Assembly (NCBI RefSeq): GCF_050920415.1
Contig: NZ_CP169309.1
DNA: 64,000 nucleotides
Origin: Escherichia coli
Lineage (GTDB): Bacteria; Pseudomonadota; Gammaproteobacteria; Enterobacterales; Enterobacteriaceae
Reading direction: 5' to 3' (one strand)
Under the pieces are notes generated by a model. It was not told the DNA's origin. It worked only from the letters and a program-made list of their open reading frames with translations, and did not search any database. Below are positions 18,999 to 36,663 of this stretch, piece by piece (the first letter of the stretch is position 1; the number at the start of each line of letters is the position of its first letter). A program made the translations under genes and the position numbers.

Positions 18999-20096
18999 AT
19001 GAAAAAATTAACAGTGGCAATTTCTGCTGTAGCTGCATCAGTACTGATGGCGATGTCTGCTCAGGCAGCTGAAATTTATAATAAAGACAGTAACAAGCTG
19101 GATCTGTACGGGAAAGTTAATGCTAAGCACTACTTCTCCTCTAATGATGCAGATGATGGTGATACTACTTATGCCCGTCTTGGCTTCAAAGGTGAAACCC
19201 AAATCAACGATCAGCTGACTGGTTTCGGTCAGTGGGAATATGAATTCAAAGGCAACCGCGCTGAATCTCAAGGTTCCTCCAAAGACAAAACCCGTCTTGC
19301 ATTTGCAGGCCTGAAATTCGGTGACTACGGCTCAATCGATTACGGCCGTAACTACGGTGTAGCATACGACATCGGTGCGTGGACTGACGTTCTGCCAGAA
19401 TTCGGTGGCGATACCTGGACCCAAACAGATGTGTTCATGACTGGTCGTACCACTGGTGTTGCAACCTATCGTAACAACGACTTCTTTGGTCTGGTTGATG
19501 GTCTGAACTTTGCTGCTCAGTACCAAGGCAAAAACGATCGTAGCGATTTCGATAACTACACTGAAGGTAACGGTGATGGCTTCGGTTTCTCTGCTACCTA
19601 TGAATACGAAGGATTCGGTATCGGTGCAACTTATGCGAAATCTGATCGTACCGACACTCAAGTTAATGCAGGGAAAGTTCTTCCTGAAGTATTTGCTTCC
19701 GGTAAAAATGCAGAAGTTTGGGCCGCAGGTCTGAAATATGACGCTAACAACATTTACCTGGCCACTACCTATTCTGAAACCCAGAATATGACTGTATTTG
19801 CTGATCACTTCGTTGCTAATAAAGCTCAAAACTTCGAAGCTGTTGCACAATATCAGTTCGATTTCGGTCTGCGTCCGTCCGTTGCTTACCTGCAATCTAA
19901 AGGTAAGGATCTTGGAGTATGGGGCGATCAGGACTTAGTCAAATATGTTGATGTAGGTGCAACCTATTACTTCAACAAAAATATGTCTACTTTCGTTGAT
20001 TACAAAATCAACCTGCTTGACAAAAATGACTTCACTAAAGCACTCGGTGTAAGCACTGATGACATCGTTGCTGTAGGTCTGGTTTACCAGTTCTAA
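18999..20096 (+). CDS. nmpC: outer membrane porin (NmpC/Lc-type general porin), apparently intact
   Basis: Track ORF 365 aa [46 protein letters not shown]...VGLVYQF; signal peptide and C-terminal aromatic residue typical of OmpC-family porins; lies between Q and S on the opposite strand as in DLP12/PA-2. Confidence 0.9.
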
Positions 20097-20104
20097 TCTG
20101 ATTA

Positions 20105-20146
20105 CGAAAAAGATATGTTGCGGGAGGCTTTGCCTCCCCAACATAT
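20105..20146 (-). terminator. putative late terminator tR' (minus strand), also usable as convergent terminator for nmpC
   Basis: Palindrome ATATGTTGGGGAGGC-AAAG-CCTCCCGCAACATAT followed on the minus strand by CTTTTTCG; ~100 nt downstream of a promoter-like sequence after Q. Confidence 0.45.
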
Positions 20147-20233
20147 AAGTGGCTCCCTCAAGCCACTTCCTTTAGGAGCACAACCTTGCTTCTAACTATA
20201 TAAACCTTCTGTTATATATTACCCTTTATTTTT

Positions 20234-20259
20234 GGGGGCGTTGCAACGCCCCATTTTTA
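20234..20259 (+). terminator. putative rho-independent terminator on the plus strand downstream of nmpC
   Basis: GGGGCGTTGCAACGCCCC followed by ATTTTTAA. Confidence 0.5.
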
Positions 20260-20285
20260 ATAACTTTTAGTAAACAACTGGCATA

Positions 20286-20669
20286 TTAATTAGAGTTATT
20301 AACAACGATATCCATCTCTAACCGGATATCTAATGCCATTAACATCCCTTCAATTATACCCTCAGCCTTCTGTAACCTTTTCCCGATATAACCATCAGAG
20401 CAGCAATGCTTACCTGCCAGTGACATGAATGTCATACCGACTACATAATAATCTACTAATAAATCGTGCAAATCGCTGTTGTTCTTTTTCAGACGGGCCA
20501 TGCACCCGCAAATGATCATCGCGTCATCGTCACAACATTGCGGGCGAGATTTTACTTTTGAAGTAATTAATCCCTTAAAACCGGCGGCAATGGACGACCA
20601 GGTCACATCTTCATGATTATTAGCCGCCCACGCTCCCCAACGCTCAAGAACCATCTGAATATCACGCAT
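20286..20669 (-). CDS. Q: late-gene antiterminator Q (phage-82 / DLP12 QuuD type)
   Basis: Track ORF 20286-20684; contains [34 protein letters not shown]...[18 protein letters not shown]... (127 aa from this Met); Cys cluster consistent with a zinc-binding Q. Confidence 0.8.
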
Positions 20670-20751
20670 CAACTTACTCCACAAAAATCAGACCAGAACG
20701 CCAATTACAAGCAAAAATCAACAAAATAGTATTAGTTGATTGTTATCTCTG

Positions 20752-20892
20752 ACTTCATACTCCTGCTCCTGTCAGGGTTTTGGCGTAATTCTTCAGTATC
20801 CGGTAATCGGTCAAAACAGAACCAGGAAAACGATATAAGCGCAGGCGCACCCAGCGGCGGCGAAGACGCTCTGCCATATAAGACTCAAACAT
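20752..20892 (-). CDS. ylcG: small DUF3927-like protein (DLP12 YlcG-like)
   Basis: Manual minus-strand translation [45 protein letters not shown]; start overlaps the rusA stop; below track size cutoff. Confidence 0.5.
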
Positions 20893-21254
20893 CATTCATT
20901 CCCCATTTCGGTGATGGTCAGTTCCAGCCTCCCACCTTTGGTAACAGGCATCTTCACAACGCGGTAATCAACGACCTGAGCATCATCCAGCCAGAAACCT
21001 GCTTTGGTGAGTGCGTCAAAAGCGGCCTTTTGCAGATTATCCAGGTCACGGCGACGGCGATCCGGCATGTGGCACTCAATACGGATTTTCACTGGCATAG
21101 CCAGGCCGATATCCAGCATTGCGTTTTTAATGATTCGGGTGACGTTATCGCGGTATGCCTGCCCTTCTGCGCTGATGTGTGTGCGCCCGCGATTATGGCG
21201 GTAATAGCGGTTATTGCTCGGAGGCCAGGGTAGTGTGATGTGGTAAGTATTCAC
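20892..21254 (-). CDS. rusA: Holliday junction resolvase RusA
   Basis: Track ORF 20892-21317; 120 aa from the GTG at 21252-21254 ([37 protein letters not shown]...); start overlaps the ybcO stop. Confidence 0.85.
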
Positions 21255-21541
21255 GCCTTGATTACCCCCTCTTTCAGCCAGATAACCTGCGTTCTCGCCA
21301 TACCTTCCAGCGCGCATTCTTTTGCGTACTCAGCATCGACAAAATGCGTGCGGCGGTCGATTTCGTCGTGACAGGCAGAACAGGCAATGGTGGCAATAAG
21401 GTCTGGCGGTTTAATACCGGTGCCGCACAATCCAGCCAGCCGGATATGTGCCAGTACAGACGTTTCAGGGTTGCCATTACATACGCCAGTGATTCTTACC
21501 TGGCATTCCCGACCACGCGCTGCTTTTCTCAAATCAGCCAT
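21251..21541 (-). CDS. ybcO: DUF1364-family protein (DLP12 YbcO-like, Cys-rich putative nuclease)
   Basis: Track ORF 21251-21580; start chosen at [35 protein letters not shown]... Confidence 0.7.
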
Positions 21542-21704
21542 GATTCCTCCTTGCTGCCAGTCGCAACCATTTTTTATCAACCAGGCTAGCGGTATATCCG
21601 AGCAGTGTTGGTATTTCGGATGGCTTCAGCTCAGGCTTACGCTTACGACGATTTGGTACTCTGTAGATGTGTCCGTTCATGACACGAATAAGCGGTGTAG
21701 CCAT
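21534..21704 (-). CDS. ninE: NinE-like small protein
   Basis: Manual translation [56 protein letters not shown]; ATG overlaps the ybcN stop (TAATG); below track size cutoff. Confidence 0.6.
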   Translation of the reverse strand: MATPLIRVMNGHIYRVPNRRKRKPELKPSEIPTLLGYTASLVDKKWLRLAARRNHG

Positions 21705-22159
21705 TACGCCTCCTGCTTGTCGCGCAGCAGCTGGAACTCGCAGCTCTGCGGAATAGTCAGGTGGCAGCCAATATTCATCGCCCAGGCTTCAACCTTACAC
21801 AGGAAGACATACATCTCTCCGGTATCAAGATCGGAAGTATGGCGTAACGACTGGATAGTAGTGATTTCGCCGGTTACGACATCAACCAGGTCCTTGGTTT
21901 CATAACCGAGGTATGTGTGTTTGAGAGCATCTTTTACCCAAGCTGGAGTGGCGAACGTTTTACCCCTGCTGATGAGGTATTCACTGATTTCGCTGTACCA
22001 CATGTGGCTGAGTGCATTCTGGGAAAGACTGCGTTTCTCACGCCACGGTTTAAGCACCATGCGAAAGCATTTGCCTTCCTCCAGATAAGGCTGGATCTGC
22101 TGGCCGATAGCGGTGAAGTTACCACGATGCAATTTGATGCCGTCTTGTGGGAGGTTCAC
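21704..22159 (-). CDS. ybcN: NinB-position protein (DLP12 YbcN-like)
   Basis: Track ORF 151 aa, GTG start preceded by [47 protein letters not shown]... Confidence 0.75.
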
Positions 22160-22193
22160 GCTTCACCTCCGCAGAGGTCAAACGCTGGATGCA

Positions 22194-22278
22194 AAAAATC
22201 GCAGGTGCATCTCTGCATCTGTGAAGGGAGAAGAGAGTTTGGATTGTATGTGCGCATAAACGTCCCCGTTTAGCGCAG
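22194..22278. repeat. ~85-bp direct repeat, copy A (partner at 24128-24211, ~93% identical)
   Basis: AAAAATCGCAGGTGCATCTCTGCATCTGTGAAGGGAGAAGAGAGTTTGGATTGTATGTGCGCATAAACGTCCCCGTTTAGCGCA; contains imperfect hairpin GCGCATAAACG-TCCCC-GTTTAGCGC. Confidence 0.75.
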
Positions 22279-22353
22279 AAGTCACCGGAGTTGTTCAAGC
22301 TCCAATGGCATGATTATGGCTGGTTGATTATTGGAAATCAAATGTGCTGAAAA

Positions 22354-22863
22354 TTAGTCTGCCAAGTCTTCCTCAGTCGCAACTGGGTAATTCCAAATAT
22401 CAAAAAAAGCTATAGCCTCCTGCCATTTGCTCCATAAGTTATCAAGTACTTGTGTAGGTTCCGTACTTTTAAAAACAGAATCAGCCGCATCACCGTTATG
22501 AACTTCCTCGTACAGTTCCATTATTAGCAGATTAACAAAGTACTGTTTCAACATTAATGCCTGATTACCTTCTTTCTGCTGGCTATCCTGCTTGATGAGC
22601 TCCATCGCCCGTACTAGGCACCTGATGATATCCGCTGCATCATTAACGCTCCATTCAGATCCGCGCTTATCTTTAGCTGATGAATTGGCTCTCTCAGCGC
22701 AAGCCTTTAAAGACTCATAAAGGTAAACTCTATTTTGTAGCTGCAGCGCTTTTTTTGACGTGCACCAACTTGCAAGCGCCGACCCCGCTGCGGCTAATGT
22801 GCCAAACGCAGAAATGCCTGCTGCTATTGCACTTAAGTCGGCACTGTCAAAGTTCCACATCAT
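22354..22863 (-). CDS. hypothetical protein with one N-terminal hydrophobic helix; no family recognised
   Basis: Track ORF 169 aa MMWNFDSADLSAIAAGISAFGTLAAAGSALASWCTSKK...; AT-rich upstream region; lies inside the repeat-bracketed cassette. Confidence 0.6.
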   Translation of the reverse strand: MMWNFDSADLSAIAAGISAFGTLAAAGSALASWCTSKKALQLQNRVYLYESLKACAERANSSAKDKRGSEWSVNDAADIIRCLVRAMELIKQDSQQKEGNQALMLKQYFVNLLIMELYEEVHNGDAADSVFKSTEPTQVLDNLWSKWQEAIAFFDIWNYPVATEEDLAD

Positions 22864-23036
22864 CGTTACACCTTATATAAACACCCCTCAGTAATATCCA
22901 ATAAGGTATGTGAACAATCAATATAATTTATATCCGTATCGGCACATAGCGATTTTAATGCTACTGATAATGGTATCTTTTAGATTATATCGTCCAGTTC
23001 CAGTACCCGTATTTTATGAAATGGACTCGCACATTA

Positions 23037-23078
23037 CCAAAAAAAATGCCAGCACTTCCGTCATCGCAGAATGCTGGC
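23037..23078 (-). terminator. putative rho-independent terminator downstream of the Bro-N-like gene
   Basis: Minus strand: GCCAGCA...TGCTGGC stem followed by ATTTTTTTTGG. Confidence 0.45.
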
Positions 23079-23098
23079 AGTATTTCTAACTAGTGACT

Positions 23099-23707
23099 TT
23101 ATTGCAACAGATTCTGACGGAAATATGGTAACACACGACTCCACTTATCATCCTGCCACGGTTGGAATTTTACATGCGCCGTTTCTCTGGCAAGGATTTC
23201 TCGCGCCCTGTTGAGTATCCGAGGATATTCTTGTTCGATTGAAGTGAATCTACCTGCTTCGCGATGCTCTGCGACCTGAAGAAGGGGCGTAACGTTCTGG
23301 CAGGCGGTTAACATCGTATCACTTGCTCGCCATAACCAGGCGAGTGTGCAAAGTTCGTTATCAGTGAATTGTTTTGTGATTGGGGATTGTTGAACTTCTC
23401 GATCGAGAATATCCAGAACCCAGCGGCGGAATTCTTTGGCCACAGGAGTACGAGCAAACATGGCGATCAAATGGGCTCCGCGAAGGCTAAATACTCGAGA
23501 CTCCTGCATTCCACGAGGGGTGGTCACTTTGACCACCCTTGTCATCATATCTGTGAATTCATCTGAGTGCCGAGAGTAAATGCGCTGAACTGCTTTATCG
23601 TCCGCATATTCCAGTGCTAAACCAACTTCAGTGGCAGTAAGCCAAATTCTGTTATTGTGGCAAATCGGGGTAAACGTCGTTTTGTGGAATGCTAATTGAG
23701 TAGTCAT
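23099..23707 (-). CDS. Bro-N / antirepressor-like domain protein
   Basis: Track ORF 202 aa MTTQLAFHKTTFTPICHNNRIWLTATEVGLALEYADDKAVQRIYSRHSDEFTD...; N-terminal region resembles Bro-N/KilA-N phage regulatory domains (pattern recognition only). Confidence 0.55.
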   Translation of the reverse strand: MTTQLAFHKTTFTPICHNNRIWLTATEVGLALEYADDKAVQRIYSRHSDEFTDMMTRVVKVTTPRGMQESRVFSLRGAHLIAMFARTPVAKEFRRWVLDILDREVQQSPITKQFTDNELCTLAWLWRASDTMLTACQNVTPLLQVAEHREAGRFTSIEQEYPRILNRAREILARETAHVKFQPWQDDKWSRVLPYFRQNLLQ

Positions 23708-23970
23708 AGTATCACCTCATCAGGTTAACCATCACCACCAACGACGCCAATCGACTGGTGGTGAACTGTGTAAGGTTGGCGTAACCGGCTACTCAAACCC
23801 GGCGCTTCCGAAGAAGCCCTCACACAGCCCACCATAATTTGGGCATAGCCGTGCTTAGCGCACAAAAAAACCGCTTAACGCGGTATGCGTTGAGTAGTAT
23901 CCCGGGACGCCAATCCCGTGTGCCGATTTTGCGGCAACGCACAGAATATAGCGCCGGATAAATCATGTCG

Positions 23971-24060
23971 TCAACCCCAGTAAATGGACACCATGATGAT
24001 CACAGCCATAGCTGCTACAACAGTTACAACTACCTCAGGCCAAAACATAACGATTTCCAT
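23971..24060 (-). CDS. candidate 29-aa hydrophobic micro-protein
   Basis: Manual translation MEIVMFWPEVVVTVVAAMAVIIMVSIYWG*, preceded by AGGTGA about 5 nt upstream; single predicted TM helix; below track size cutoff. Confidence 0.3.
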   Translation of the reverse strand: MEIVMFWPEVVVTVVAAMAVIIMVSIYWG

Positions 24061-24127
24061 ATCACCTTTAGCCGCCAGACGAATAGAGACTCCCAATTCT
24101 GGCTGTCGAAGTAAAACACCGAATGTA

Positions 24128-24211
24128 AAAAATCGTAGGTGCATTTCTGCATCTGTGAATGGAGATGAGAGTTTGGATTGTGTGTGCGCATAAACGTCCC
24201 CGTTTAGCGCA
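24128..24211. repeat. ~85-bp direct repeat, copy B (partner at 22194-22278)
   Basis: AAAAATCGTAGGTGCATTTCTGCATCTGTGAATGGAGATGAGAGTTTGGATTGTGTGTGCGCATAAACGTCCCCGTTTAGCGCA; about 6 mismatches versus copy A. Confidence 0.75.
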
Positions 24212-24519
24212 ACCCCACCACCGGGTGTTCAGGCCGACAGTAACTATATTATTCCCTACTGATTTTTGAAAATCAAAGGTCTTTATACGTCACACGAGAG
24301 CAAATATTTCCGAAGAAGAAACCTTTCGCCTTGAAAGGATAAAGAGTTCATTTCATAAATTGAAATATTCAATAAGAATATTGCAAAAAATGAAATTATT
24401 TACTAGCGAGTCTATCTAACTGATAATTATGAAGATTGTAAGCGGTAGCAATCACCCGCATACACATTGAACAGGATTTAATACAAAACGTCTTAAATTG
24501 TCCGTAAGGAATAGCACGA

Positions 24520-26022
24520 ATGACTCAAACTCCTCTATTACTTGCAATCATATTTTTATTGGTTGTTCTTGTTCTTTATATAGCTGCAATCAAACGCATC
24601 AAAAAAATACAATTAGAATTAAGTGATAGCAATCAAAAAAATGAAGAATACAAATCTCGCTTTGCAGATTATTTTAATGTAGAAGAAGAATGTAAGAAGC
24701 TTATTGAGAAAACAGAGCAAGAATGCTCCATAATAAAAGAAGAATCCCTAAAAGTAAAAGAAAATGCCAATAATGAACTAACAAACACCATTGAAAAAAT
24801 GGATGGTATCAATAAACAAATCCAAGAGCTAAGAAGAACTTATAAAGAGAAGAAAGAAATATATGATAAACTAGTAAGGCAAATTTCTATTTATTCAGAA
24901 GATGTTGAGCTAGCCGAACTAGGATTTTACGAACCTCATTTTAATTTTGAAGATTCAGAGCAATTTAAAAACAAAATAAAATCCATCAGGGATGAACAGA
25001 AATTAATGCTGCGGGATAAAACCCACTCTGGCGCAGTATATTGTACAACCCAATGGACTGTTGAAGGCTCTCGAGCAGAGGGTAAAAAAATGACAGACAG
25101 AAATATCAGGCTAACTACTAGAGCATTTAATAATGAATGTGATGCTGCAATTAGCAATTGCACGTGGAAAAACATCACTAAAATGGAAGAACGCATCACA
25201 AAGGCATTTGAGGCCATAAATAAACTAAACGAGCAAAATCACATATATATAAACACTAAATACCTCAATAAAAAACTTGAGGAATTGTGGCTTACCCATG
25301 AATATCGTGAGCAAAAACAGAAAGAAAAAGAAGAACAGGCAGAAATAAGGGCACAAATGAGAGAGGAGGAGCGTGCACAACGAGAAATAGAAAAGGCCAT
25401 GCAAGACGCAGAGGCAGAAGAGCGCCGTTATAAAAAAGCAATTGAAGCTGCAAGAAAGGAAATGGAAAAAGTTACTGGTGACATGAAGCAGCGCCTCGAA
25501 AATCGCATTGCCGAACTAGAACAGAGTTTGTCGCAGGCTGAATCAAAGCATCAAAGAGCATTATCCATGGCACAACAAACCAAACAAGGTCATGTTTATA
25601 TTATTTCGAACATAGGTTCTTTTGGGGAGAATGTTTATAAAATAGGCATGACACGACGTCTTGATCCGCAAGACCGTGTAAATGAGCTCGGTGATGCATC
25701 TGTTCCTTTTATTTTTGATGTACATGCCATGATTTATTCGGAGGACGCTCCATCATTAGAAAAAAAACTACATGATGTCTTCGATAAAAAGAGAGTCAAT
25801 CTTGTAAATCGTAGAAAAGAGTTTTTCTATGTTACTCTGGATGAGATCAAAGAAGCTGTTAAAAAACACTCTGATTCAGAAATTGAATTTATTGAGACAG
25901 CAGTCGCAAAAGACTTTAATGAGTCATTGGCTATTCGTAATCATGAAAATAAAAAAAGTGACAACAGCAACTCATCAATTATACCTGAGCGAAAAACCCC
26001 AGAGTTTGCAGATGCAATTTAA
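24520..26022 (+). CDS. membrane-anchored coiled-coil protein with C-terminal GIY-YIG/T5orf172-like domain (DUF4041-like architecture); candidate defence moron
   Basis: Track ORF 500 aa: N-terminal TM helix (LLLAIIFLLVVLVLYIAAI), ~300 residues Lys/Glu-rich coiled coil, then GHVYIISNIGSFGENVYKIGMTRRLDPQDRVNELG...EKKLHDVF...RKEFFYV; RBS AAGGAA; strongly AT-rich; opposite strand to flanking phage genes. Confidence 0.8.
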   Translation: MTQTPLLLAIIFLLVVLVLYIAAIKRIKKIQLELSDSNQKNEEYKSRFADYFNVEEECKKLIEKTEQECSIIKEESLKVKENANNELTNTIEKMDGINKQIQELRRTYKEKKEIYDKLVRQISIYSEDVELAELGFYEPHFNFEDSEQFKNKIKSIRDEQKLMLRDKTHSGAVYCTTQWTVEGSRAEGKKMTDRNIRLTTRAFNNECDAAISNCTWKNITKMEERITKAFEAINKLNEQNHIYINTKYLNKKLEELWLTHEYREQKQKEKEEQAEIRAQMREEERAQREIEKAMQDAEAEERRYKKAIEAARKEMEKVTGDMKQRLENRIAELEQSLSQAESKHQRALSMAQQTKQGHVYIISNIGSFGENVYKIGMTRRLDPQDRVNELGDASVPFIFDVHAMIYSEDAPSLEKKLHDVFDKKRVNLVNRRKEFFYVTLDEIKEAVKKHSDSEIEFIETAVAKDFNESLAIRNHENKKSDNSNSSIIPERKTPEFADAI

Positions 26023-26270
26023 TTAATTTGTAGTAGCAATAAAGCAGGCATCGTTGAGAATATTTTGTCAGCGATGCTTACTTCTCTAACAAAAACGGTG
26101 ATTACCAACGAACTAACGGACTTCAGGTAATCATAAGACAAATGGAACGACTCTCCGGTGATTAGATCCCTGCAATAACAGTAATTTTCTACTAACTGAA
26201 AAATCTTTAACTGCCGCTCCTATTTCTAAGCTGACTGCTAGATTACATGGTGTGTTACCGATGAAAACCG

Positions 26271-26573
26271 TCACAGCAAGTTTAAGTTCATATCTCCATA
26301 CACTGCCAACACTCGTTTCATCGCGGCACTCTGGCGACACTCCTTGAAAATCAGATTCGTGCTCACCTTTCCTTCCCGTTCTTCCCTGGTAGCGAACCGG
26401 TAATACACCGTTCGCCAGACCTTACCATCAACGACCAAGATTCCTGCCCGTGCCATTTTAGCCGCAGCCTGATTTATACTGGTTACTGTTGCGCCTGTTA
26501 CCGCAGCAACGTCCTGCGCACAGAAGCTCTTATGCGTCCCCAGGTAATGAATAATTGCCTCTTTGCCCGTCAT
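26271..26573 (-). CDS. ren: Ren protein (lambda Ren-like)
   Basis: Track ORF 100 aa MTGKEAIIHYLGTHKSFCAQDVAAVTGATVTSINQAAAKMARAGILVVDGKVW... Confidence 0.85.
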   Translation of the reverse strand: MTGKEAIIHYLGTHKSFCAQDVAAVTGATVTSINQAAAKMARAGILVVDGKVWRTVYYRFATREEREGKVSTNLIFKECRQSAAMKRVLAVYGDMNLNLL

Positions 26574-27271
26574 ACAGTTGCTCCTTTCAGTCCGAACTTC
26601 GCTTTGATTTCTGCGATCTTCGCCAGAGCCTGTGCACGATTTAGAGGTCTACCGCCCATGACAGGAAGTTGTTTTACTGGTTCAGGTATCGCCTCACCAC
26701 GGTTAATTCGCGCGGTCATACAAGTCAGTTCATCGGCAGCCTTGCGCCGTAATTCCGCATCAGTAAGCGCATTGGCCCGCATGTTCTGATACAGGTTGGT
26801 AACCAGCCAGTAGTGCGCGTTTGATTTCCACGGATAAGACTCTGCATCTGGATACAGGCCACGTTTCCGGCAATACTCGTAAACCATATCAACCAGCTCG
26901 CTGGCGTTTGGCAGCCCGGCGGTAACGGATGCTTCTTCCCGGCACCAGGCAACAAACTGCCCGGGTGATGGCAGGAATGGTCGATTCTGCCGACGGGCTA
27001 CGCGCATTCCTGCGTCAACCTGTTCCATCGTGGTGATCCCGTTTTCCCGGAAAGCCAGAACCCACTGGCGGCGGATTTCGTTCAGTTCGTTCTGGTCCCG
27101 GTTAGCCAGGCTCGCCGGGAAAGTTGCCAGTAACTGGCTGAACACACCATTGATGATCTGCGCTACCTGTTGTACCTGCGGCTTTTCGTCGTACTGTTCC
27201 GGCATGTTGTTGGCGATCCGGCGCATCTGCTCACGGTCAAAGTTAACCATCTGTGCGGCGATGTTTTTCAT
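26570..27271 (-). CDS. P: replication protein P (DnaB helicase loader, lambda P-like)
   Basis: Track ORF 233 aa MKNIAAQMVNFDREQMRRIANNMPEQYDEKPQVQQVAQIINGVF... Confidence 0.9.
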   Translation of the reverse strand: MKNIAAQMVNFDREQMRRIANNMPEQYDEKPQVQQVAQIINGVFSQLLATFPASLANRDQNELNEIRRQWVLAFRENGITTMEQVDAGMRVARRQNRPFLPSPGQFVAWCREEASVTAGLPNASELVDMVYEYCRKRGLYPDAESYPWKSNAHYWLVTNLYQNMRANALTDAELRRKAADELTCMTARINRGEAIPEPVKQLPVMGGRPLNRAQALAKIAEIKAKFGLKGATV

Positions 27272-28287
27272 AAATCCACCCCGTAAATCCAGTCAGTGTT
27301 TGTCAGGTCGAGTTTTGATTTTCCGGCTATCACGCCAGCCTGTTGCTTGTTACGGTTGATTTCGAGTTGGGTCCACTTGTCGCGGAGTTTGGCCGGACTT
27401 AGCACGTTACCGGACCAGAAGTTGTCCTGGCATGCCCAGCGGAACAGCACGCACATGTCGCGGTGGTTACGGCCGTCACGTTCACGCATCAGGCGGATAT
27501 CGTTAGCCCACCCTGCAAAATTCGGTTTTCTGGCTGATGGCGCGATGGTCTTCACCATGTCAAACATCCACTCTGCGGCGGTCAGGTCTTCTGCTGTCCC
27601 CCACCTGCTGCCGCTCTGAATTGCAGCATCTGGTTTCTCCACAGGAAGATCGTTTTCTGGTTGGTCAGAGGATTCGCCAGAATTCTCGGACGAAAAAGGT
27701 TTTATATTGTCTTTTGTTAGTTTGTCTTTTGTGTTTACCTGATTCGGGTAAGTGCCTTTACCTGATTTGGGTAAACTTTTCTTACCTGATTCAGGTAAAT
27801 TTACCTCTTTCAGGTAAACTTTATTTTTCTTACCTGATTCGGGTAATGTTGACCATTCACTGACCACATTATTAATGCCGATATTCCGCCCGCTCTGAAT
27901 AAAAATCCCACGCTTTACCAGAACACTTTTTGCAGCAGAACACTTGTGCGGCAATATCCCGGTCAACTCGGAAAGTTGCTCGTTGCTCACCCAATCCAGT
28001 TTTTTATTAAAGCCATATGTTTTGCGCATGACAGCCAGGAAGACCAGAAGCTGGTGCTGTGTTAATCCGGCCAGCATCACAGCTTCCAGCAACTCATTTG
28101 CAATGCGCGTATAACCATCATCGAGATCTGCCACGCGCGGCTCCTTTTGTGCCGCATCCGGCACTGGAAAATTGAATATCTCAGCAGTGTTTGCCATAAT
28201 TCCTCCCGCAATGAGTGTGTTACGATTTGCACCTGAAAGTCGGTTCTGTTCCCGCAGACCGACTTTCGCCATTTCTGAACCTGTCAT
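27268..28287 (-). CDS. O: replication initiator O (lambdoid O-like; origin iterons inside the gene)
   Basis: Track ORF 339 aa (start uncertain; internal Met at MANTAEIFNF...); C-terminal part resembles the lambda O P-interaction domain; iterons at 27735-27846 lie within the coding sequence. Confidence 0.8.
   Translation of the reverse strand: MTGSEMAKVGLREQNRLSGANRNTLIAGGIMANTAEIFNFPVPDAAQKEPRVADLDDGYTRIANELLEAVMLAGLTQHQLLVFLAVMRKTYGFNKKLDWVSNEQLSELTGILPHKCSAAKSVLVKRGIFIQSGRNIGINNVVSEWSTLPESGKKNKVYLKEVNLPESGKKSLPKSGKGTYPNQVNTKDKLTKDNIKPFSSENSGESSDQPENDLPVEKPDAAIQSGSRWGTAEDLTAAEWMFDMVKTIAPSARKPNFAGWANDIRLMRERDGRNHRDMCVLFRWACQDNFWSGNVLSPAKLRDKWTQLEINRNKQQAGVIAGKSKLDLTNTDWIYGVDL
27698..27846. 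repeat. ori: replication origin: five palindromic iterons (TACCTGATTCGGGTA-like) plus adjacent AT-rich segment
   Basis: Copies at ~27736-27750, 27759-27773, 27783-27797, 27802-27816, 27831-27845; AT-rich stretch 27698-27734 on the downstream side relative to O. Confidence 0.65.
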
Positions 28288-28823
28288 ATTGCCCCCAGCA
28301 TGGTGGTCACCATCGCCATTAATGGACCAGCCAGATCCGGGTCCACACGAAACATCGACACAATACCTTCACTCATTTCCTTCAGTTTCTGGTGGCGTGG
28401 TGCGTTGAGAATGACAGCCTGTTTTGCCTCACTGAGTTCCTTTTCCATTTCAGCCAACCGAGTCATGAAGCTATCCTGCTCAACCAGGTAACCGCGATAT
28501 TCCAGCGGTAGTACCGCCAGAATTGCCGGGGTCAGTTCACGCACGTTATTTCGGTATTTTTCAGAATCGAATTTGTTATCGAGGAAGCGGAACAGCTTCT
28601 GGCGTGCACGGCTGACATCATCAGGGAAATCGATGGTGCCGTCGCCCTGCTCCCGATACTCATTCACAATGAGTGCGGCAACGACATCCTGATTATCTAC
28701 AGCCGACCAGGCGCGGACGGCATCACGGATTTTTTCGTGGCCTGGAGCTTGTTTTGTTTGAGAACGATTTATCACCGCAGTCGGAATAAATCCGCTAGTC
28801 TGTTGGTATGTAAGTGGTTGCAT
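28284..28823 (-). CDS. YdaT-family protein (occupies the cII position)
   Basis: Track ORF 179 aa MQPLTYQQTSGFIPTAVINRSQ...ALIVNEYREQGDGTIDFP...RELTPAILAVLPLEYRGYL; resembles Rac YdaT by recollection. Confidence 0.5.
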   Translation of the reverse strand: MQPLTYQQTSGFIPTAVINRSQTKQAPGHEKIRDAVRAWSAVDNQDVVAALIVNEYREQGDGTIDFPDDVSRARQKLFRFLDNKFDSEKYRNNVRELTPAILAVLPLEYRGYLVEQDSFMTRLAEMEKELSEAKQAVILNAPRHQKLKEMSEGIVSMFRVDPDLAGPLMAMVTTMLGAI

Positions 28824-28892
28824 AATTGACTCCTTTAGTTTGAATTGACTGTTAAGTTGATTGCTTATTGTTAAAGAGCGTGAAATGGAAAT

Positions 28893-29123
28893 TTAAGCTG
28901 CGTTCTTTTCGGTGTGTGGAAACAACTTCGGAAGATCCGGGCGAATCTGGTATGCCTTCACAACTCCACCAGTAGCCGTAACAATGCTGCCGACATGTTC
29001 AGGGGATACCTTTGCTTTGTTGTGAAGCCACTTATAGACGGCCTGCTGTGAAACTTCGCAGGCATCGCCTAGTTTCTTTTGTGAACCAACGATATTGATC
29101 GCTGTTTTGATTGCTGGGTTCAT
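28893..29123 (-). CDS. cro: Cro/YdaS-type HTH regulator (cro analogue)
   Basis: Track ORF 76 aa MNPAIKTAINIVGSQKKLGDACEVSQQAVYKWLHNKAKVSPEHVGSIVTATGG...; divergent from the repressor gene. Confidence 0.65.
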   Translation of the reverse strand: MNPAIKTAINIVGSQKKLGDACEVSQQAVYKWLHNKAKVSPEHVGSIVTATGGVVKAYQIRPDLPKLFPHTEKNAA

Positions 29124-29227
29124 AACAACCTCCGTGGTTAATCCGAATCAAGATTAAAACTATGGTTGTTTTTAGTCAACAACCATTTTCGTTTGATGAA
29201 ATAAAACCTTGGTTGTACATTTGATCT
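29124..29227. promoter_or_regulatory. immunity-region operator/promoter region between divergent cro-like and cI genes
   Basis: Inverted repeats with half-site TGGTTGT/ACAACCA (e.g. ATGGTTGTTTTTAGTCAACAACCAT); same half-site recurs in the putative OL/PL region. Confidence 0.5.
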
Positions 29228-29917
29228 ATGAAAACAACACTCTCAGAAAGACTTAAAGAAGCCAGATTAGCGCGAGGCCTTACACAAAAGGCGCTTGGGG
29301 ATTTGGTCGGGGTTAGCCAAGCTGCTATTCAGAAAATCGAAACAGGGAAAGCTAACCAAACAACTAAAATCGTGGAGATCGCGAACGCTTTGGGTGTGCG
29401 CGCAGAATGGTTATCTTCTGGCGTTGGAAATATGTCAGACAGTACAGTGCAACCAATACAATCAACTGTCAGCCATTCCAAATACTTCAAAATTGACGTT
29501 CTTGATATAGAAGTCAGTGCCGGGCCAGGTGTAATCAACCGTGAGTTTGTAGAAGTTCTACGCTCGGTTGAGTACTCGTTTGACGATGCTCGTCACATGT
29601 TCGATGGCAGGAAGGCGGAAAATATCCGCATCATTAACGTGCGAGGTGACAGCATGTCAGGGACGATCGAACCAGGTGACCTGCTGTTCGTTGATATCAC
29701 TGTTAAATCTTTCGACGGTGATGGCATCTATGCGTTTCTGTACGACGACACTGCCCATGTAAAACGTCTTCAAATGATGAAGGATAAGCTGCTGGTTATC
29801 TCTGATAACAAGAGCTACTCGCCGTGGGACCCGATCGAGAAAGACGAGATGAACCGGGTGTTCATATTCGGTAAGGTCATTGGAAGCATGCCGCAGACGT
29901 ACAGGAAGCATGGTTAA
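29228..29917 (+). CDS. cI: CI-type repressor (XRE-family HTH + S24 LexA-like autopeptidase domain)
   Basis: Track ORF 229 aa MKTTLSERLKEARLARGLTQKALGDLVGVSQAAIQKIETGK...GDSMSGTIEPGDLLFVD...KRL; HTH and Ser/Lys-dyad motifs. Confidence 0.85.
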   Translation: MKTTLSERLKEARLARGLTQKALGDLVGVSQAAIQKIETGKANQTTKIVEIANALGVRAEWLSSGVGNMSDSTVQPIQSTVSHSKYFKIDVLDIEVSAGPGVINREFVEVLRSVEYSFDDARHMFDGRKAENIRIINVRGDSMSGTIEPGDLLFVDITVKSFDGDGIYAFLYDDTAHVKRLQMMKDKLLVISDNKSYSPWDPIEKDEMNRVFIFGKVIGSMPQTYRKHG

Positions 29918-30146
29918 TTTATCTACGACTTAAGGGAGCGAAGGTTAAGGTTTATACCACTCGGATTAGATATTGCACTAAATTCTCTATAAGAACGCCA
30001 AATCTGTTTGCATATTTCAGTAAATATTCTCGTTGTTAGCTGAGATTTGTTGCTACTGTCAGCAAAATGTCCCCCTATCTCGTAGCGGTTTTTATTTCGA
30101 ATCATTATGTTAAGATGTTTCTGATTATAATGAATGGAAACATAAA

Positions 30147-30527
30147 ATGAGAAAAATCCTAATCGCTGCCATGATGGCATCTGTATTGGCTGGGTGTGCT
30201 TCTTCAGGCAACCAGCAACTCAAAAATGAAACTGAAATTAGTGTCCAGTCTAAACTTCAGGAAGGTAAAACAACCAAGAATGAGGTTAAATCTTACTTTG
30301 GTTCTCCTGATGCTGTTTCATATACTGACAGTGGAAACGAGATCTGGAAGTACGCCTTTGCAAAAGTAAAAGTTAATGGCACCACTTTTATTCCATTCTA
30401 TGGATTATTCCATAATGGAACGAACGGTACGAAAAAAGAACTTACTATTCTTTTTAACGATGACACGATTAAGAAATACACAATGTCAGAAACCCAAATA
30501 AACTCGAAATCAGGTTGGGCTGACTGA
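30147..30527 (+). CDS. lipoprotein of unknown function, located directly downstream of cI (rex position)
   Basis: Track ORF 126 aa MRKILIAAMMASVLAGCASSGNQQLKNETEISVQSKLQEGK...; lipobox LAGC; AT-rich; followed by a terminator. Confidence 0.7.
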   Translation: MRKILIAAMMASVLAGCASSGNQQLKNETEISVQSKLQEGKTTKNEVKSYFGSPDAVSYTDSGNEIWKYAFAKVKVNGTTFIPFYGLFHNGTNGTKKELTILFNDDTIKKYTMSETQINSKSGWAD

Positions 30528-30535
30528 TAATCATA

Positions 30536-30560
30536 CCCGGCAACCGCGCCGGGTTTTCTT
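30536..30560 (+). terminator. putative rho-independent terminator after the lipoprotein gene
   Basis: CCCGGCAACCGCGCCGGG followed by TTTTCTTTTCC. Confidence 0.55.
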
Positions 30561-30684
30561 TTCCTCCCCCTCATAACTCATACCGTCCAAAAAACCACCA
30601 CACCTCACTTCAGTTATCGCTATGCGATGCAAGTCACAAAATAAATCCATCCTAAATACAACCAGTTATATTTAAAACAACCGA

Positions 30685-30731
30685 CAAAACAACTTTTGTT
30701 GTTGACGATAAAACAACTATAGTTTTAAATA
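30685..30731 (+). promoter_or_regulatory. putative PL promoter with overlapping OL operators
   Basis: TTGACG (30702-30707), 17-bp spacer, TTAAAT (30725-30730); flanked by AACAACTTTTGTTGTT and AAAACAAC matching the OR half-site. Confidence 0.4.
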
Positions 30732-30803
30732 AATTCATCGCAACGACACAACGATACGGTAACCACCTGTTTCACCGTGGCGATGACCGCTTAGATCCGC
30801 AGT

Positions 30804-31214
30804 TTGAATTTCAGCAGGCTTCGGGGAGTGCGAGGGGTGAAACGGACGCGTGAACGTCGGTGTGACCAGCTGAAATCAACACAACACTTTATACCTCAGT
30901 CGCTTCAACGAGGCGGCTTAGTTATGACAACCGGCGGCCATCCACCGCCTGAATACGCGCAGAAGTCTCTATATGTTCAGCAGCCCAGCTTACGGGCAGG
31001 AGTTTTTATGGTTCATCAACATTACGGAACGCAGACCGTTAATCGCGGTGCGGTCATGCCAGGAATGCTGGTCAAACACAAAGATGGTACCTGGACTGCA
31101 TCAGCTAATTTACGCGGACGGCTTTATCTGCATCGCGGCATCGAGCGCACTTATACCCGTGATTTGCTCGTGGAAGTTTTTCTCGACGGACGCGGTAACG
31201 GCCTCAATCACTAA
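30804..31214 (+). CDS. hypothetical early-left protein; possibly an N-type antiterminator if a non-ATG start is used (ATG-initiated product would be 30924-31214)
   Basis: Track ORF 136 aa with TTG start; in-frame arginine-rich segment [12 protein letters not shown] resembles N-protein ARM motifs; first ATG ([14 protein letters not shown]...) has GAGG about 10 nt upstream; ends 75 nt before gam. Confidence 0.4.
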
Positions 31215-31289
31215 TCCCCTTTCCTGTTTTCCTAATCAGCCTGGCATTTCGCGGGCGATATTTTCACAGCCATTTTCAGGAGTTCAGCC

Positions 31290-31586
31290 ATGAACGCTTA
31301 TTACATTCAGGATCGTCTTGAGGCTCAGAGCTGGGCGCGTCACTACCAGCAGATCGCCCGTGAAGAGAAAGAGGCAGAACTGGCAGACGACATGGAAAAA
31401 GGCCTGCCCCAGCACCTGTTTGAATCGCTATGCATCGATCATTTGCAACGCCACGGGGCCAGCAAAAAAGCCATTACCCGTGCGTTTGATGACGATGTTG
31501 AGTTTCAGGAGCGCATGGCAGAACACATCCGGTACATGGTTGAAACCATTGCTCACCACCAGGTTGATATTGATTCAGAGGTATAA
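31290..31586 (+). CDS. gam: Gam (RecBCD inhibitor), short GamS form
   Basis: Track ORF 98 aa [52 protein letters not shown]... Confidence 0.9.
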
Positions 31587-31591
31587 AACGG

Positions 31592-32377
31592 ATGAGTACA
31601 GCACTCGCAACGCTGGCAGGGAAGCTGGCTGAACGTGTCGGCATGGATTCTGTCGACCCACAGGAACTGATCACCACTCTTCGCCAGACGGCATTTAAAG
31701 GTGATGCCAGCGATGCGCAGTTCATCGCATTGTTGATCGTCGCCAACCAGTACGGCCTTAATCCGTGGACGAAAGAAATTTACGCCTTCCCTGATAAGCA
31801 GAACGGCATCGTTCCGGTGGTGGGCGTTGATGGCTGGTCCCGCATCATCAATGAAAACCAGCAGTTTGATGGTATGGACTTTGAGCAGGACAATGAATCC
31901 TGCACATGCCGGATTTACCGCAAGGACCGCAATCATCCGATCTGCGTTACCGAGTGGATGGATGAATGCCGCCGCGAACCATTCAAAACCCGCGAAGGCA
32001 GAGAAATCACGGGGCCGTGGCAGTCGCATCCCAAACGGATGTTACGTCATAAAGCCATGATTCAGTGTGCCCGTCTGGCCTTCGGATTTGCTGGTATCTA
32101 TGACAAGGATGAAGCCGAGCGCATTGTCGAAAATACCGCATACACTGCAGAACGTCAGCCGGAACGCGACATCACTCCGGTTAACGATGAAACCATGCAG
32201 GAGATTAACACTCTGCTGATTGCCCTGGATAAAACATGGGATGACGACTTATTGCCGCTCTGTTCCCAGATATTTCGCCGCGACATTCGCGCATCGTCAG
32301 AACTGACACAGGCCGAAGCAGTGAAAGCTCTCGGATTCCTGAAACAGAAAGCCACTGAGCAGAAGGTGGCAGCATGA
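31592..32377 (+). CDS. bet: Bet (Red-beta single-strand annealing protein)
   Basis: Track ORF 261 aa [48 protein letters not shown]... Confidence 0.95.
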
Positions 32378-33054
32378 CACCGGACATTATCCTGCAGCGT
32401 ACCGGGATCGACGTGAGAGCTGTCGAACAGGGGGATGATGCATGGCACAAATTACGGCTCGGCGTCATCACCGCTTCAGAAGTTCACAACGTGATAGCAA
32501 AGCCCCGCTCAGGAAAGAAGTGGCCTGACATGAAAATGTCCTACTTCCACACCCTGCTTGCCGAGGTTTGCACCGGTGTGGCTCCGGAAGTTAACGCTAA
32601 AGCACTGGCCTGGGGAAAACAGTACGAGAACGACGCCAGAGCCCTGTTTGAGTTTACTTCCGGCGTGAATGTTACTGAATCCCCGATCATCTATCGCGAC
32701 GAAAGTATGCGCACCGCCTGCTCTCCCGATGGTTTATGCAGTGACGGCAACGGCCTTGAACTGAAATGCCCGTTTACCTCCCGGGATTTCATGAAATTCC
32801 GGCTCGGTGGTTTCGAGGCAATAAAATCGGCTTACATGGCCCAGGTGCAGTACAGCATGTGGGTGACGCGAAAAGATGCCTGGTACTTTGCCAACTATGA
32901 CCCACGAATGAAGCGTGAAGGCCTGCATTATGTCGTGATTGAGCAGGATGAAAAGTACATGGCGAGTTTTGACGAGATGGTGCCGGAGTTCATCGAAAAA
33001 ATGGACGAGGCACTGGCTGAAATTGGTTTTGTATTTGGGGAGCAATGGCGATGA
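32374..33054 (+). CDS. exo: Exo (Red-alpha 5'-3' exonuclease)
   Basis: Track ORF 226 aa [49 protein letters not shown]... Confidence 0.95.
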
Positions 33055-33233
33055 AGCATCCTCACGATAATATCCGGGTAGGCGCGATCACTTTCGTCTA
33101 CTCCGTTACAAAGCGAGGCTGGGTATTTCCCGGCCTTTCTGTTACCCGAAATCCCCTGAAAGCACAGCGGCTGGCTGAGGAGATAAATAATAAACGGGGA
33201 GCTGTATGCACAAAGCATCTCCTGTTGAGTTAA
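33045..33233 (+). CDS. small hypothetical protein (lambda orf60a-position)
   Basis: Track ORF 62 aa [50 protein letters not shown]...; start overlaps the exo stop. Confidence 0.55.
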
Positions 33234-33397
33234 GAACGAGCATTGAGATGGCACATAGCCTCGCTCAAATTGGAGTCAGGTTTGTGCCAATACCAGTAGA
33301 AACAGACGAAGAATTTCATACGTTAGCCGCATCCCTTTCACAAAAGCTGGAAATGATGGTGGCGAAAGCAGAAGCAGATGAGAGAGACCAGGTATGA
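33206..33397 (+). CDS. small hypothetical protein (lambda orf63-like)
   Basis: Track ORF 63 aa [50 protein letters not shown]... Confidence 0.55.
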   Translation: MHKASPVELRTSIEMAHSLAQIGVRFVPIPVETDEEFHTLAASLSQKLEMMVAKAEADERDQV

Positions 33398-33473
33398 CAA
33401 CCACTGAATGCATTTTTCTGGCAGCGGGCTTCATATTCTGTGTGCTTATGCTTGCCGACATGGGACTTGTTCA

Positions 33474-33689
33474 ATGACACATCAGCAAGAAAACGCCCTT
33501 CGCAGTATTGCCCGTCAGGCTAATTCTGAAATCAAAAAAGCCAGACAGCAGTTCCCGGATAAAAACGTCGATGATATTTGCCGTAGCGTACTGAAGAAGC
33601 ACCGCGAAACGGTAACGCTGATGGGATTCACACCGACTCATTTAAGCCTGGCGATCGGCATGTTAAACGGCGTCTTTAAGGAACGGTGA
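33474..33689 (+). CDS. small hypothetical protein (lambda orf61-like)
   Basis: Track ORF 33408-33689; start chosen at internal ATG 33474 (MTHQQENALRSIARQANSEIKKARQQFPDKNVDD...). Confidence 0.5.
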   Translation: MTHQQENALRSIARQANSEIKKARQQFPDKNVDDICRSVLKKHRETVTLMGFTPTHLSLAIGMLNGVFKER

Positions 33690-33787
33690 GCATGAAAAAC
33701 AAAATCATCATGGAGCTACAGGCTCCTTTTTTATTATTCGCATTCACCCTCAAGCGTATTAACCAACAATTCAGGGATTAATGAAAG

Positions 33788-34006
33788 ATGGCAGACATCA
33801 TTGATTCAGCATCAGGAATTGAAGAATTACAGCGCAACACAGCAATAAAAATGCGCCGCCTGAACCACCAGGCTATATCTGCCACTCATTGTTGTGAGTG
33901 TGGCGATCCGATAGATGAACGAAGACGCCTGGCCGTTCAGGGTTGTCGGACTTGTGCAAGTTGCCAGGAGGAGATCGAACTTAAGAACAAACAATGGGGA
34001 CTGTGA
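33788..34006 (+). CDS. DksA/TraR-family C4 zinc-finger protein
   Basis: Track ORF 72 aa MADIIDSASGIEELQRNTAIKMRRLNHQAISATHCCECGDPIDERRRLAVQGCRTCASCQEE...; CxxC...CxxC motif. Confidence 0.75.
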   Translation: MADIIDSASGIEELQRNTAIKMRRLNHQAISATHCCECGDPIDERRRLAVQGCRTCASCQEEIELKNKQWGL

Positions 34007-34053
34007 TGGCCTCAAAGCAGCAAATTTCAACATCGTCCAACTGAGGTGTAAAA

Positions 34054-36661: not shown

Positions 36662-36663
36662 TA

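Follow-up and report, generated by a model that had tools for sequence, protein, structure and literature searches.

We analysed a 64,000-nt stretch of Escherichia coli DNA (contig NZ_CP169309.1; the whole stretch is called the window below), which contains a DLP12/phage-82-like lambdoid prophage with its early-right operon on the minus strand. The nin region of this prophage carries a pair of direct repeats. We found that the repeat forms the most strongly conserved stretch of a minus-strand unit ~190 nt long, in which a sigma-70-like promoter is followed by two hairpins (HP1 and HP2), a leader open reading frame (ORF) with a third hairpin and a U-run inside it (HP3 + U-run), a fourth hairpin (HP4) and an overlap of the leader stop codon with the start codon of the next gene. 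Judged from comparisons within a large family of relatives, the repeat is probably the core of a cis-acting coupled or attenuating leader that heads the operon running from orf/ninB to Q.

The repeat pair and its unit

A repeat search returned one direct-repeat family, at 22174-22277 (copy A) and 24108-24211 (copy B), 104 nt long at 89% identity and 1934 nt apart, with a core of 89 nt at 93% (22189-22277 versus 24123-24211, by BLAST and by direct count). The coordinates and identity agree with the first-pass annotation of the window, in which ~85-bp repeats, ~93% identical, had been placed at 22194-22278 and 24128-24211; the imperfect hairpin that it had pointed out in both copies, GCGCATAAACG-TCCCC-GTTTAGCGC, was recovered at 22252-22276 and 24186-24210 (fold -13.7 kcal/mol). 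Two of its statements had to be revised. The homologous unit is longer than 85 nt, with weaker similarity continuing upstream through a promoter-like TTGATT-17-CATAAT/AATAAT and a first hairpin, and the T-run that it had found lacking does exist (22193-22199 and 24127-24133), following another hairpin further downstream. That annotation had not noted the leader ORF, the hairpin with U-run, the hairpin occluding a Shine-Dalgarno sequence or the promoter that the IsrK/C4-Ant module (see below) has for itself. A covariance model built from other phages only matched copy A at 22191-22310 (minus strand; E=1.7e-14) and copy B at 24125-24245 (minus strand; E=1.9e-13), and gave no further matches in the 64-kb window. 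The repeat match is far beyond chance.

All features of copy A lie on the minus strand. Its promoter-like site (22313-22341), located by a consensus scan, has the -35 TTGATT at 22341-22336, a 17-nt spacer and the -10 CATAAT at 22318-22313; a palindrome search places the -35 inside the palindrome TTGATTTCCAATAATCAA. HP1, the 5'-proximal stem-loop GCCAUUGGAG-CUUGAACAA-CUCCGGUGAC (22281-22309), has a folding energy of -9.4 kcal/mol and is followed by HP2, GCGCUAAACG-GGGA-CGUUUAUGCGC (22252-22276), which is the hairpin of the first-pass annotation. The leader ORF has the GGGA loop of HP2 as its Shine-Dalgarno sequence, and its AUG (22257-22255) is situated in the 3' arm of the same hairpin. The leader ORF, taken from the ORF list, has 33 codons (22156-22257), and its UGA stop overlaps the GUG start of ybcN (GUGA). 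Within it lie HP3, CACAGAUGCA-GAGA-UGCACCUGCG (22200-22223; a GNRA loop, two A.C mismatches, -7.3 kcal/mol), and the stretch AUUUUUU at 22193-22199; the two together were flagged as terminator-like by a scan and can be described as terminator- or pause-like. HP4, GCGUUUGACCUC-UGCG-GAGGUGAAGCGUG (22157-22185; -16.8 kcal/mol, z = -2.6), pairs both the Shine-Dalgarno sequence and the GUG of ybcN.

Copy B, on the same strand, has the promoter-like site TTGATT-17-AATAAT at 24248-24276 with the palindrome TTGATTTTCAAAAATCAG (consensus and palindrome searches), and an HP2 (24186-24210) identical in sequence to that of copy A. Its HP1, CUGUCGG-CCUGAACAC-CCGGUGG (24218-24240), represents another stem allele; it contains three G.U pairs and folds weakly (-3.7 kcal/mol). 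In HP3, CACAGAUGCA-GAAA-UGCACCUACG followed by AUUUUUU (24127-24157), a G-to-A change breaks one pair (-4.4 kcal/mol). The leader ORF of copy B, again from the ORF list, has 53 codons (24030-24191); it crosses the ribosome site and the start of a downstream micro-ORF and stops 30 nt inside it, in another frame. Folding of copy B gave no significant HP4-like hairpin, and there is no stop/start overlap of the kind seen in copy A.

A family of leaders with covarying hairpins

Related loci were retrieved by BLAST against phage records and by three DNA-pattern scans, with several hundred of them coming from IMG/VR; a further scan was made with one genome per species. All retrieved loci share one architecture on the strand that matches the window minus strand. 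For the analysis of covariation we built a covariance model from 18 phi80-type sequences with three hairpins specified and aligned 83 matches to it (82 distinct rows); the alignment is thus one fitted to the structure, and most of the sequences had been retrieved by DNA patterns within HP3 or HP4. A plain MAFFT alignment analysed with RNAalifold had given a poor consensus, with HP2 variants misaligned, and was superseded by the model-based alignment.

Among the 82 distinct rows, standard pairs occupy 93.2% of the cells, versus 67.4% in column shuffles and 24-30% with the partners slid by 1-3 columns. Two-sided changes were seen at 25 of the 29 pairs, namely at all 11 stem pairs of HP1, all 10 pairs of HP2 and four of the eight pairs of HP3. 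The GU/UG pairs (115) outnumber the AC/CA mismatches (43), which indicates that the molecule under selection is the minus-strand RNA and not a DNA palindrome. On this comparative evidence the alignment shows HP1, HP2 and HP3 to be three covarying hairpins in the minus-strand RNA. The first-pass annotation had suggested a duplicated regulatory or RNA element as one of two readings of the repeat, and this is borne out: each copy belongs to a conserved family, made up of a promoter and a structured leader, with strong base-pair covariation.

The stem of HP1 varies freely in sequence, while its 9-nt loop YCUGRRCAA (CCUGAACAA; 22291-22299 and 24225-24233 in the window, minus strand) is near-invariant and is the most conserved feature of the element, kept even in the most divergent variants. 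The loop resembles a GNR(N)A pentaloop and has AACAA in common with boxA. In one element type (L161, L134, L135 and L248), upstream of the GATG anchor, two to three tandem hairpins with a shared loop (CCUGAACCA, UCUGAACAA, CCGAACA) precede HP2; this hints at several binding sites for one factor. As a separate observation, CCTGAACAA with at most one mismatch occurs 31 times in the window (14.7 expected; none of 100 shuffles reached 31); two of the matches, near the immunity region, were inspected and dismissed by position or strand.

Across the family HP2 has a stem of 10-11 bp and a GGGA loop, and is separated from HP3 by a G-poor linker of ~30 nt. The E. coli form of HP3 is CACAGAUGCA-GAAA-UGCACCUGCG with two A.C mismatches, followed by AUUUUYUGCAU; compensatory variants include CACAGAUGCA/UGCACCUGCG, CACCGAUGGC/GCCACCGGCG, ..GAC/GUC.. 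and ..GCU/AGC... Because retrieval with patterns in HP3 or HP4 is biased, we also used a set retrieved by HP4 and the ybcN start only, in which 115 of 136 members have the canonical HP3. The divergent remainder (L275, L290, L293, L311 and L320) have an unrelated hairpin in place of HP3, with a U-run after it, and keep the HP1 loop, HP2 and the leader ORF. In L275 the otherwise wholly different stem (CACUGACGUC-ACCA-GGCGCCAGCG) retains both A.C mismatches. An alternative HP3 pairing, AUGCAGAAA/UUUCUGCAU, was favoured by single-sequence folding of copy A; it was rejected, as it is not kept in Klebsiella types and the GNRA hairpin covaries.

HP4 is predicted by single-sequence folding in most members and in several sequence versions. 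In 198 of 217 elements, at least 75% of the downstream gene's Shine-Dalgarno sequence is paired; three sequence versions of the hairpin do this, with energies of -14 to -19 kcal/mol.

Leader ORF and promoter

In every variant an AUG (once GUG) is located in the 3' arm of HP2, 5-6 nt past GGGA, in spite of more than 10 unrelated stem sequences; the same placement was seen in divergent variants found without the HP3 constraint. This constant spacing suggests that the GGGA loop serves as a Shine-Dalgarno sequence. The leader ORF that starts here passes through the G-poor linker, HP3 + U-run and HP4. Of 200 unique elements, 185 have a leader ORF of 31-33 codons, and in 194 the leader stop codon overlaps the next start (GTGA in 113, ATGA in 81).

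The peptide itself is poorly conserved and has no match to an NCBIfam or PHROG family. Judged by eye, without counting, the differences in its N-terminal half fall mainly at codon positions 1 and 2. A C-terminal motif, S-x-M-x-K-x-T-x-DFLH-S/P-A, recurs, with the variable x residues corresponding to the covarying bases of the HP3 stem; D, F, L and H are replaced in many members with the U-richness kept (again by eye, not counted). From these patterns the conserved thing appears to be the translation of the leader ORF and not its product.

The usual promoter-like site of the family is TTGATT-17-CATAAT, with the -35 often within the palindrome TTGATT-N6-AATCAA; other members have, at the same position, TTGCTT-17-GATAAT or an extended -10 (TGTTATAAT), and some variants have an alternative promoter architecture. 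A site with at least 9 of 12 consensus matches at the fixed distance was found in 163 of 240 unique elements. The corresponding counts were 4-8 at control positions and 23 in shuffles, again out of 240. These counts show that a predicted promoter of sigma-70 type is kept at a fixed distance even where its sequence has been replaced. Insulation of the element by an upstream terminator was considered and rejected, with a terminator present within ~330 nt in only 42 of 221 elements.

The 18-bp palindrome TTGATT-N6-AATCAA over the -35 (22324-22341 and 24259-24276 in the window) is present in most E. coli-type relatives and absent from Klebsiella-type promoters; it is a candidate operator for some regulator. 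Control by the phage's own CI was rejected, as the OR operators ATGGTTGTT...AACAACCAT (29150-29190) are unrelated to this palindrome.

The repeat as a recombination joint

The other reading of the first-pass annotation, a recombination joint for gain of moron genes, also found support. In four loci (L014, L047, L066 and L028) the sequence corresponding to 26100-24108 of the window (98-99% identity), which comprises the defence gene PD-Lambda-1 and the promoter, HP1 and repeat of copy B, is joined directly to that corresponding to 22277-21600 (97-98%), which comprises the repeat and ybcN. A single hybrid copy forms the junction, and precisely the 1.9-kb cassette is missing. In L014 the part from HP2 to HP3 is 98.9% like copy A, so the crossover should be near the start of the repeat. 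Two other loci (L006 and L041) have two copies of the repeat around the same micro-ORF/C4/Ant module with different genes in the distal slot, a 118-aa protein in L006 and a 138-aa protein with a 133-aa partner in L041 (11824-12621). The 138-aa protein of L041 looks HEPN-like by eye from its N-terminal sequence, with no family search run. Among 240 elements, the type of HP1, the type of HP2 and the type of the downstream gene reassort freely. For accessory or defence genes, the slot in front of the ybcN leader behaves as a hot spot.

A recent tandem duplication was rejected as the origin of the two copies: their identity, 93.3%, equals the median pairwise identity of 35 unique 82-type segments, which implies that the cassette arrived with its own leader allele. 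Homologous recombination within the conserved patch of ~100 nt would have joined to the prophage a cassette that carried its own allele of the unit; copy B would now head the 29-aa peptide of the micro-ORF, with copy A keeping control of ybcN through Q, and recombination between the two copies would remove the cassette precisely. The state in the window may have come about by insertion, or the empty sites by deletion.

The first-pass annotation had considered that a role at cassette boundaries would be undermined if the repeat proved to be part of a longer conserved segment with the same arrangement in all related phages. Such a segment, a promoter and leader upstream of orf/ninB, is indeed found in all related phages, but the association with cassette boundaries is still real. 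The data thus support both readings, joint and regulatory element, at once.

Proposed mechanism and alternative explanations

With a leader of this design, translation of the downstream gene would depend entirely on a ribosome that comes from the leader ORF, opens HP4 and starts again, i.e. on translational coupling. HP2 would throttle initiation on the leader ORF, making a double lock with HP4. With no translating ribosome on the leader, HP3 and the U-run would pause or terminate transcription, and Rho acting on the C-rich, G-poor linker may contribute to this. The termination step in particular is predicted with less confidence than the model as a whole. The default state would be OFF or low, a prediction that agrees with the behaviour of rusA, a downstream gene in DLP12, which needs insertions supplying a promoter (PMC4118853). 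The family has the short promoter-proximal ORF of attenuators, with its start at a fixed place, and copy A has the stop/start overlap and the paired Shine-Dalgarno sequence of coupled gene pairs. Copy B has the 30-nt overlap with the micro-ORF instead; it probably serves the membrane peptide only.

Several observations weigh against this model. As an intrinsic terminator, HP3 would be weak (-4.4 to -11 kcal/mol, two A.C mismatches, an A before the U-run). Transcription start, termination at the U-run and leader translation are predictions throughout. A mutually exclusive antiterminator structure was not found, the pairing AUGCAGAAA/UUUCUGCAU being present in E. coli types and not in Klebsiella types; nor was a run of regulatory codons found in the list of leader peptides, and the model accounts neither for the signal that turns the leader ON nor for what opens HP2. 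The near-invariant HP1 loop has no part in it. The outer pairs of HP1 covary, though a start ~7 nt past the -10 would exclude them from the transcript, and this suggests that HP1 structure also matters in read-through transcripts coming from upstream. Retrieval through HP3 and HP4 patterns inflates the apparent conservation of these two hairpins. A second frame is stop-free in 161 of 223 elements, so openness of a frame is weak evidence, and the case for the leader ORF rests on the fixed start codon and the stop/start overlap. Finally, coupling to the micro-ORF is less clear at copy B, which has neither HP4 nor the overlap.

Part of the same evidence can be read in other ways. The promoter, the 5' hairpins, the unstructured G-poor linker and the hairpin with U-run make up the architecture of many Hfq-dependent small RNAs (sRNAs), so that the element could chiefly encode a trans-acting sRNA of ~115-125 nt with its own promoter, in which HP1 and HP2 precede a single-stranded C/U-rich linker serving as the seed, and HP3 with the U-run provides both the terminator and the Hfq site. 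Lysogens would produce this sRNA, its targets would be mRNAs of the host or the phage, and transcription continuing into ninB would be incidental. The presence of several copies per prophage-bearing genome (up to four in E. coli) fits this picture, as does the neighbouring IsrK, described as a dual sRNA/mRNA (PMC4825925). We nevertheless consider a trans-acting sRNA unlikely. The linker, i.e. the putative seed, is the least conserved part and wholly different between element types; as a terminator, HP3 is weak; a pure trans role would not account for the conserved start codon, the stop/start overlap or HP4; and svsR (3' end of cI), Pas (near Q and the lysis genes) and HnrS (late genes) map elsewhere. 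The peptide, YlcH/Orf33 of 31-33 aa, could instead be the conserved entity with a function of its own and the hairpins incidental, given that all variants keep the ORF together with its start codon and frame, and that the C-terminal motif recurs. This is very unlikely in our view: the variable residues are the covarying HP3 bases, with radical replacements (Q/P, Q/A/T, C/A/V, C/G) that preserve pairing; N-terminal changes sit mainly at the first two codon positions, and the many replacements of D, F, L and H keep the U-richness (both by eye); the last residues are set by the ribosome site of the next gene; no family match was found; and the product of copy B has 53 aa and a different tail.

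The conservation of the HP1 loop invites explanations centred on that hairpin. HP1-HP3 could be an RNA that binds a factor or modifies RNA polymerase, a put-like antiterminator or a nut-like loading site with the HP1 loop as recognition element, making transcription to Q independent of lambda-type N/tR2. In favour of such a role are the nearly invariant loop on a covarying stem, the variants with two to three tandem hairpins of the same loop, the possibility of reading the loop as a boxB-like GNR(N)A pentaloop, the position of the element, which is that of lambda tR2, and its presence in HK639. The latter phage reportedly uses put-type RNA and not N. But with filters off, the covariance model found nothing in lambda or in the early region of HK022 (best E=0.36 in the HK022 records, 24000-30000 and 30000-40751). 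Neither PL nor PR adjoins the element, and a terminator scan of the window that went only down to 21500 gave no terminators between ybcN and Q. No boxA of the CGCUCUUUA type adjoins HP1, the loop of which can be read as GRRCA; the closing U-A of boxB is not conserved, copy B having CCUGAACAC with C for the closing A; and a phage-specific N or Q partner is unlikely for an element whose carrier phages differ in immunity and Q type. A put- or nut-like site is therefore quite improbable. We give an equally guarded place to the sRNA and to a riboregulator of a class not described before, in which the HP1 loop would recruit a factor or contact RNA polymerase or the ribosome: this is doubtful, and if true the riboregulator would be present in about half of E. 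coli genomes and would gate the orf-to-Q operon, and with it the lytic programme, as a second RNA-based checkpoint on the way to Q, independent of lambda N/tR2. The least probable reading, to which we attach hardly any weight, is that the palindromes are DNA operators for a repressor with no function at the RNA level, the repeat being a duplicated operator/promoter with binding sites at HP1, at HP2 and at the -35 palindrome. The record of the phage 82 region (X92588) does annotate HP1 as a 'possible regulator-binding site', and a palindrome covers the -35 in both copies and in many relatives. The arms of HP1-HP3, however, vary yet stay complementary, with many G.U pairs (A.C mismatches if read from the opposite strand), whereas a DNA site would have conserved arms; the -35 palindrome could be an operator, yet it is absent in Klebsiella-type promoters and has no resemblance to the CI operators of this phage.

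Distribution and significance

The 82-type version of the element was found in 2885 of 5426 complete E. coli genomes, with up to four copies per genome. Relatives were seen in Klebsiella, Enterobacter, Citrobacter, Leclercia, Siccibacter, Raoultella, Trabulsiella, Lelliottia and other genera of Enterobacteriaceae. At every locus examined the element is located between replication or accessory genes and orf/ninB, and the next gene nearly always belongs to the Orf/NinB family, either of the 151-aa YbcN type or of the 145-149-aa NinB type. An Rfam 15 scan of 19000-29000 of the window with E<=1 gave no match at 22150-22345 or 24100-24280; C4, isrK and c4-a1b1, all within the cassette, were its only matches. 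In a search of literature on ylcH, ybcN or ninB in connection with sRNA, promoter or terminator we found no description of the element. It is widespread yet uncharacterised, and has not previously been treated as an RNA family or a control element.

The operon that the element precedes ends in Q, which acts as the lysis switch and, in related phages, as the switch for Shiga-toxin release. If the coupled-leader model is right, it would explain why nin genes such as ybcN and rusA are silent in cryptic prophages such as DLP12, and how lambda tR2 is replaced in these phages. It would also explain the build-up of accessory and defence genes at this place, the leader being a portable expression signal and, at the same time, a patch of homology for gain and loss of cassettes. 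All in all, a leader-ORF-coupled attenuator doubling as a mosaic joint is, on the comparative data, the probable identity of this common element, which is well supported by covariation and uncharacterised.

Cassette content and gene order in the prophage

The prophage region is shared with phage PhiR26_1 (PV340555), which is identical to the window across the compared region 26100-21600. The early-right operon (minus strand) begins, in transcription order, with O (28287-27268), P (27271-26570) and ren (26573-26271). A consensus boxA, CGCTCTTTAACAA, is present just downstream of cro at 28865-28880 (minus strand), with no obvious boxB hairpin after it. Past ren, the anti-phage gene PD-Lambda-1 (24520-26022, 500 aa; PADLOC, 1.9e-198) is on the plus strand, transcribed against the early-right operon immediately upstream of copy B. 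From there the order is copy B, the micro-ORF, the IsrK and C4 RNAs, the antirepressor gene, a gene for a 169-aa protein, copy A and ybcN.

The micro-ORF headed by copy B (23971-24060, minus strand) encodes a hydrophobic peptide of 29 aa, MEIVMFWPEVVVTVVAAMAVIIMVSIYWG, with a match to PHROG 4612 (1.7e-16). Its ATG is preceded by AAAGGUGAU, and it is conserved in L006 and L041. PHROG 4612 is usually annotated as a 57-aa ORF; the overlap of the micro-ORF with the copy-B leader ORF is reminiscent of how small membrane toxins are coupled in systems such as mok/hok.

The remaining parts of the cassette are likewise on the minus strand. A scan found the promoter-like site TTGACG-18-TATATT at 23974-23945, better than copy B's own promoter. 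It is followed by an IsrK or c4-a1b1-like RNA with a terminator (23951-23864; isrK 58.7 bits against a gathering score of 50, c4-a1b1 39.6 bits, under its gathering score of 46.7; terminator by scan) and by a C4 antisense RNA (23839-23754; Rfam, 74.8 bits against a gathering score of 45). The antirepressor gene (Ant/Bro-N type, 202 aa) occupies 23099-23707 and matches PHROG 245 and other anti-repressor Ant families (~3e-56). Downstream of it, at 23040-23085 (minus strand), a long GC-rich inverted repeat with a T-run, GAAATACTGCCAGCAT...ATGCTGGCATTTTTTT on the RNA strand, has the appearance of a terminator insulating the 169-aa gene; it was not listed by the scan, probably owing to a large loop. 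The 169-aa protein (22354-22863), with a hydrophobic N-terminus, falls in PHROG 1779 of unknown function, has no PADLOC match and occupies the variable distal slot.

Beyond copy A, ybcN (21704-22159, minus strand) encodes a recombination mediator of the Orf/NinB family (NCBIfam PRK09741, 3e-84; PHROG 72, NinB/Orf). It is the first gene of the nin operon and is followed by ninE, ybcO, rusA and, at the end of the operon, Q (20286-20684, minus strand); the annotation of the identical PhiR26_1 matches. Between Q and the lysis genes an NmpC/OmpD-like porin gene (18999-20096, plus strand) is intact in the window. The nmpC-like porin of K-12 DLP12 is disrupted by IS5, and in locus L270 we saw an IS5 transposase at the position matching the porin gene of the window.

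Comparison with known systems

The cassette segment 23754-23974 is an antirepressor control module of the P1 immI or Gifsy-1 IsrK-AnrP type, placed within the nin region. The C4 and IsrK RNAs and the Ant gene, with C4 upstream of the latter, stand in the same order as in immI of P1/P7 (c4-icd-ant) and in isrK-orf45-anrP of Gifsy-1; the cassette differs from both by the extra leader copy and the 29-aa membrane peptide before the module.

As for the leader, the same element is present in the orf33 region of phage 82 (X92588), with 97% identity to copy A, and in K-12 DLP12 between ybcM and ybcN. The X92588 record annotates the same putative -35 and -10, the HP1 palindrome, a ribosome-binding site and a 33-codon ORF overlapping orf151. 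These annotations of phage 82 and DLP12 amount to a hypothetical gene and putative signals only, and do not include the RNA structure, covariation, HP3 + U-run, HP4, the spread of the element or its role as a joint. The 33-codon ORF of K-12 DLP12, which we take to be ylcH, appears in RefSeq as 'hypothetical protein'.

Lambda has tR2 at the position of the element, in the gap between ren and ninB immediately upstream of orf/ninB, and tR2 is also a hairpin with a U-run. It differs in being a strong GC hairpin without promoter, leader ORF or extra hairpins, and has no similarity to the element in sequence or by the covariance model, which with filters off gave no trace of the element in lambda. 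Leader-peptide attenuators and coupled leaders (pyrBI, trp, his; mok/hok) are like the element in having a short promoter-proximal ORF, a hairpin with U-run near the ribosome, an occluded downstream ribosome site and the stop/start overlap. Unlike them, the element has no run of regulatory codons and no demonstrated antiterminator hairpin; its start codon is locked in a hairpin with a Shine-Dalgarno loop, and it has an extra 5' hairpin with an invariant loop. The put sites of HK022 are likewise tandem stem-loops directly downstream of a phage promoter, with the sense RNA under structural selection; the element differs from them by its location in the nin region and not at PL or PR, by its embedded leader ORF and translational signals, and by the lack of a covariance-model match.

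Finally, the repeat invites comparison with the boundary or linker sequences at mosaic joints of lambdoid phages and with relaxed homologous recombination (PMC3945230): it is a short conserved patch between variable modules. Products with and without the cassette and the drop of flank identity outside the patch are shared features; the patch described here, in contrast, is a regulatory RNA and promoter unit, not a neutral linker.

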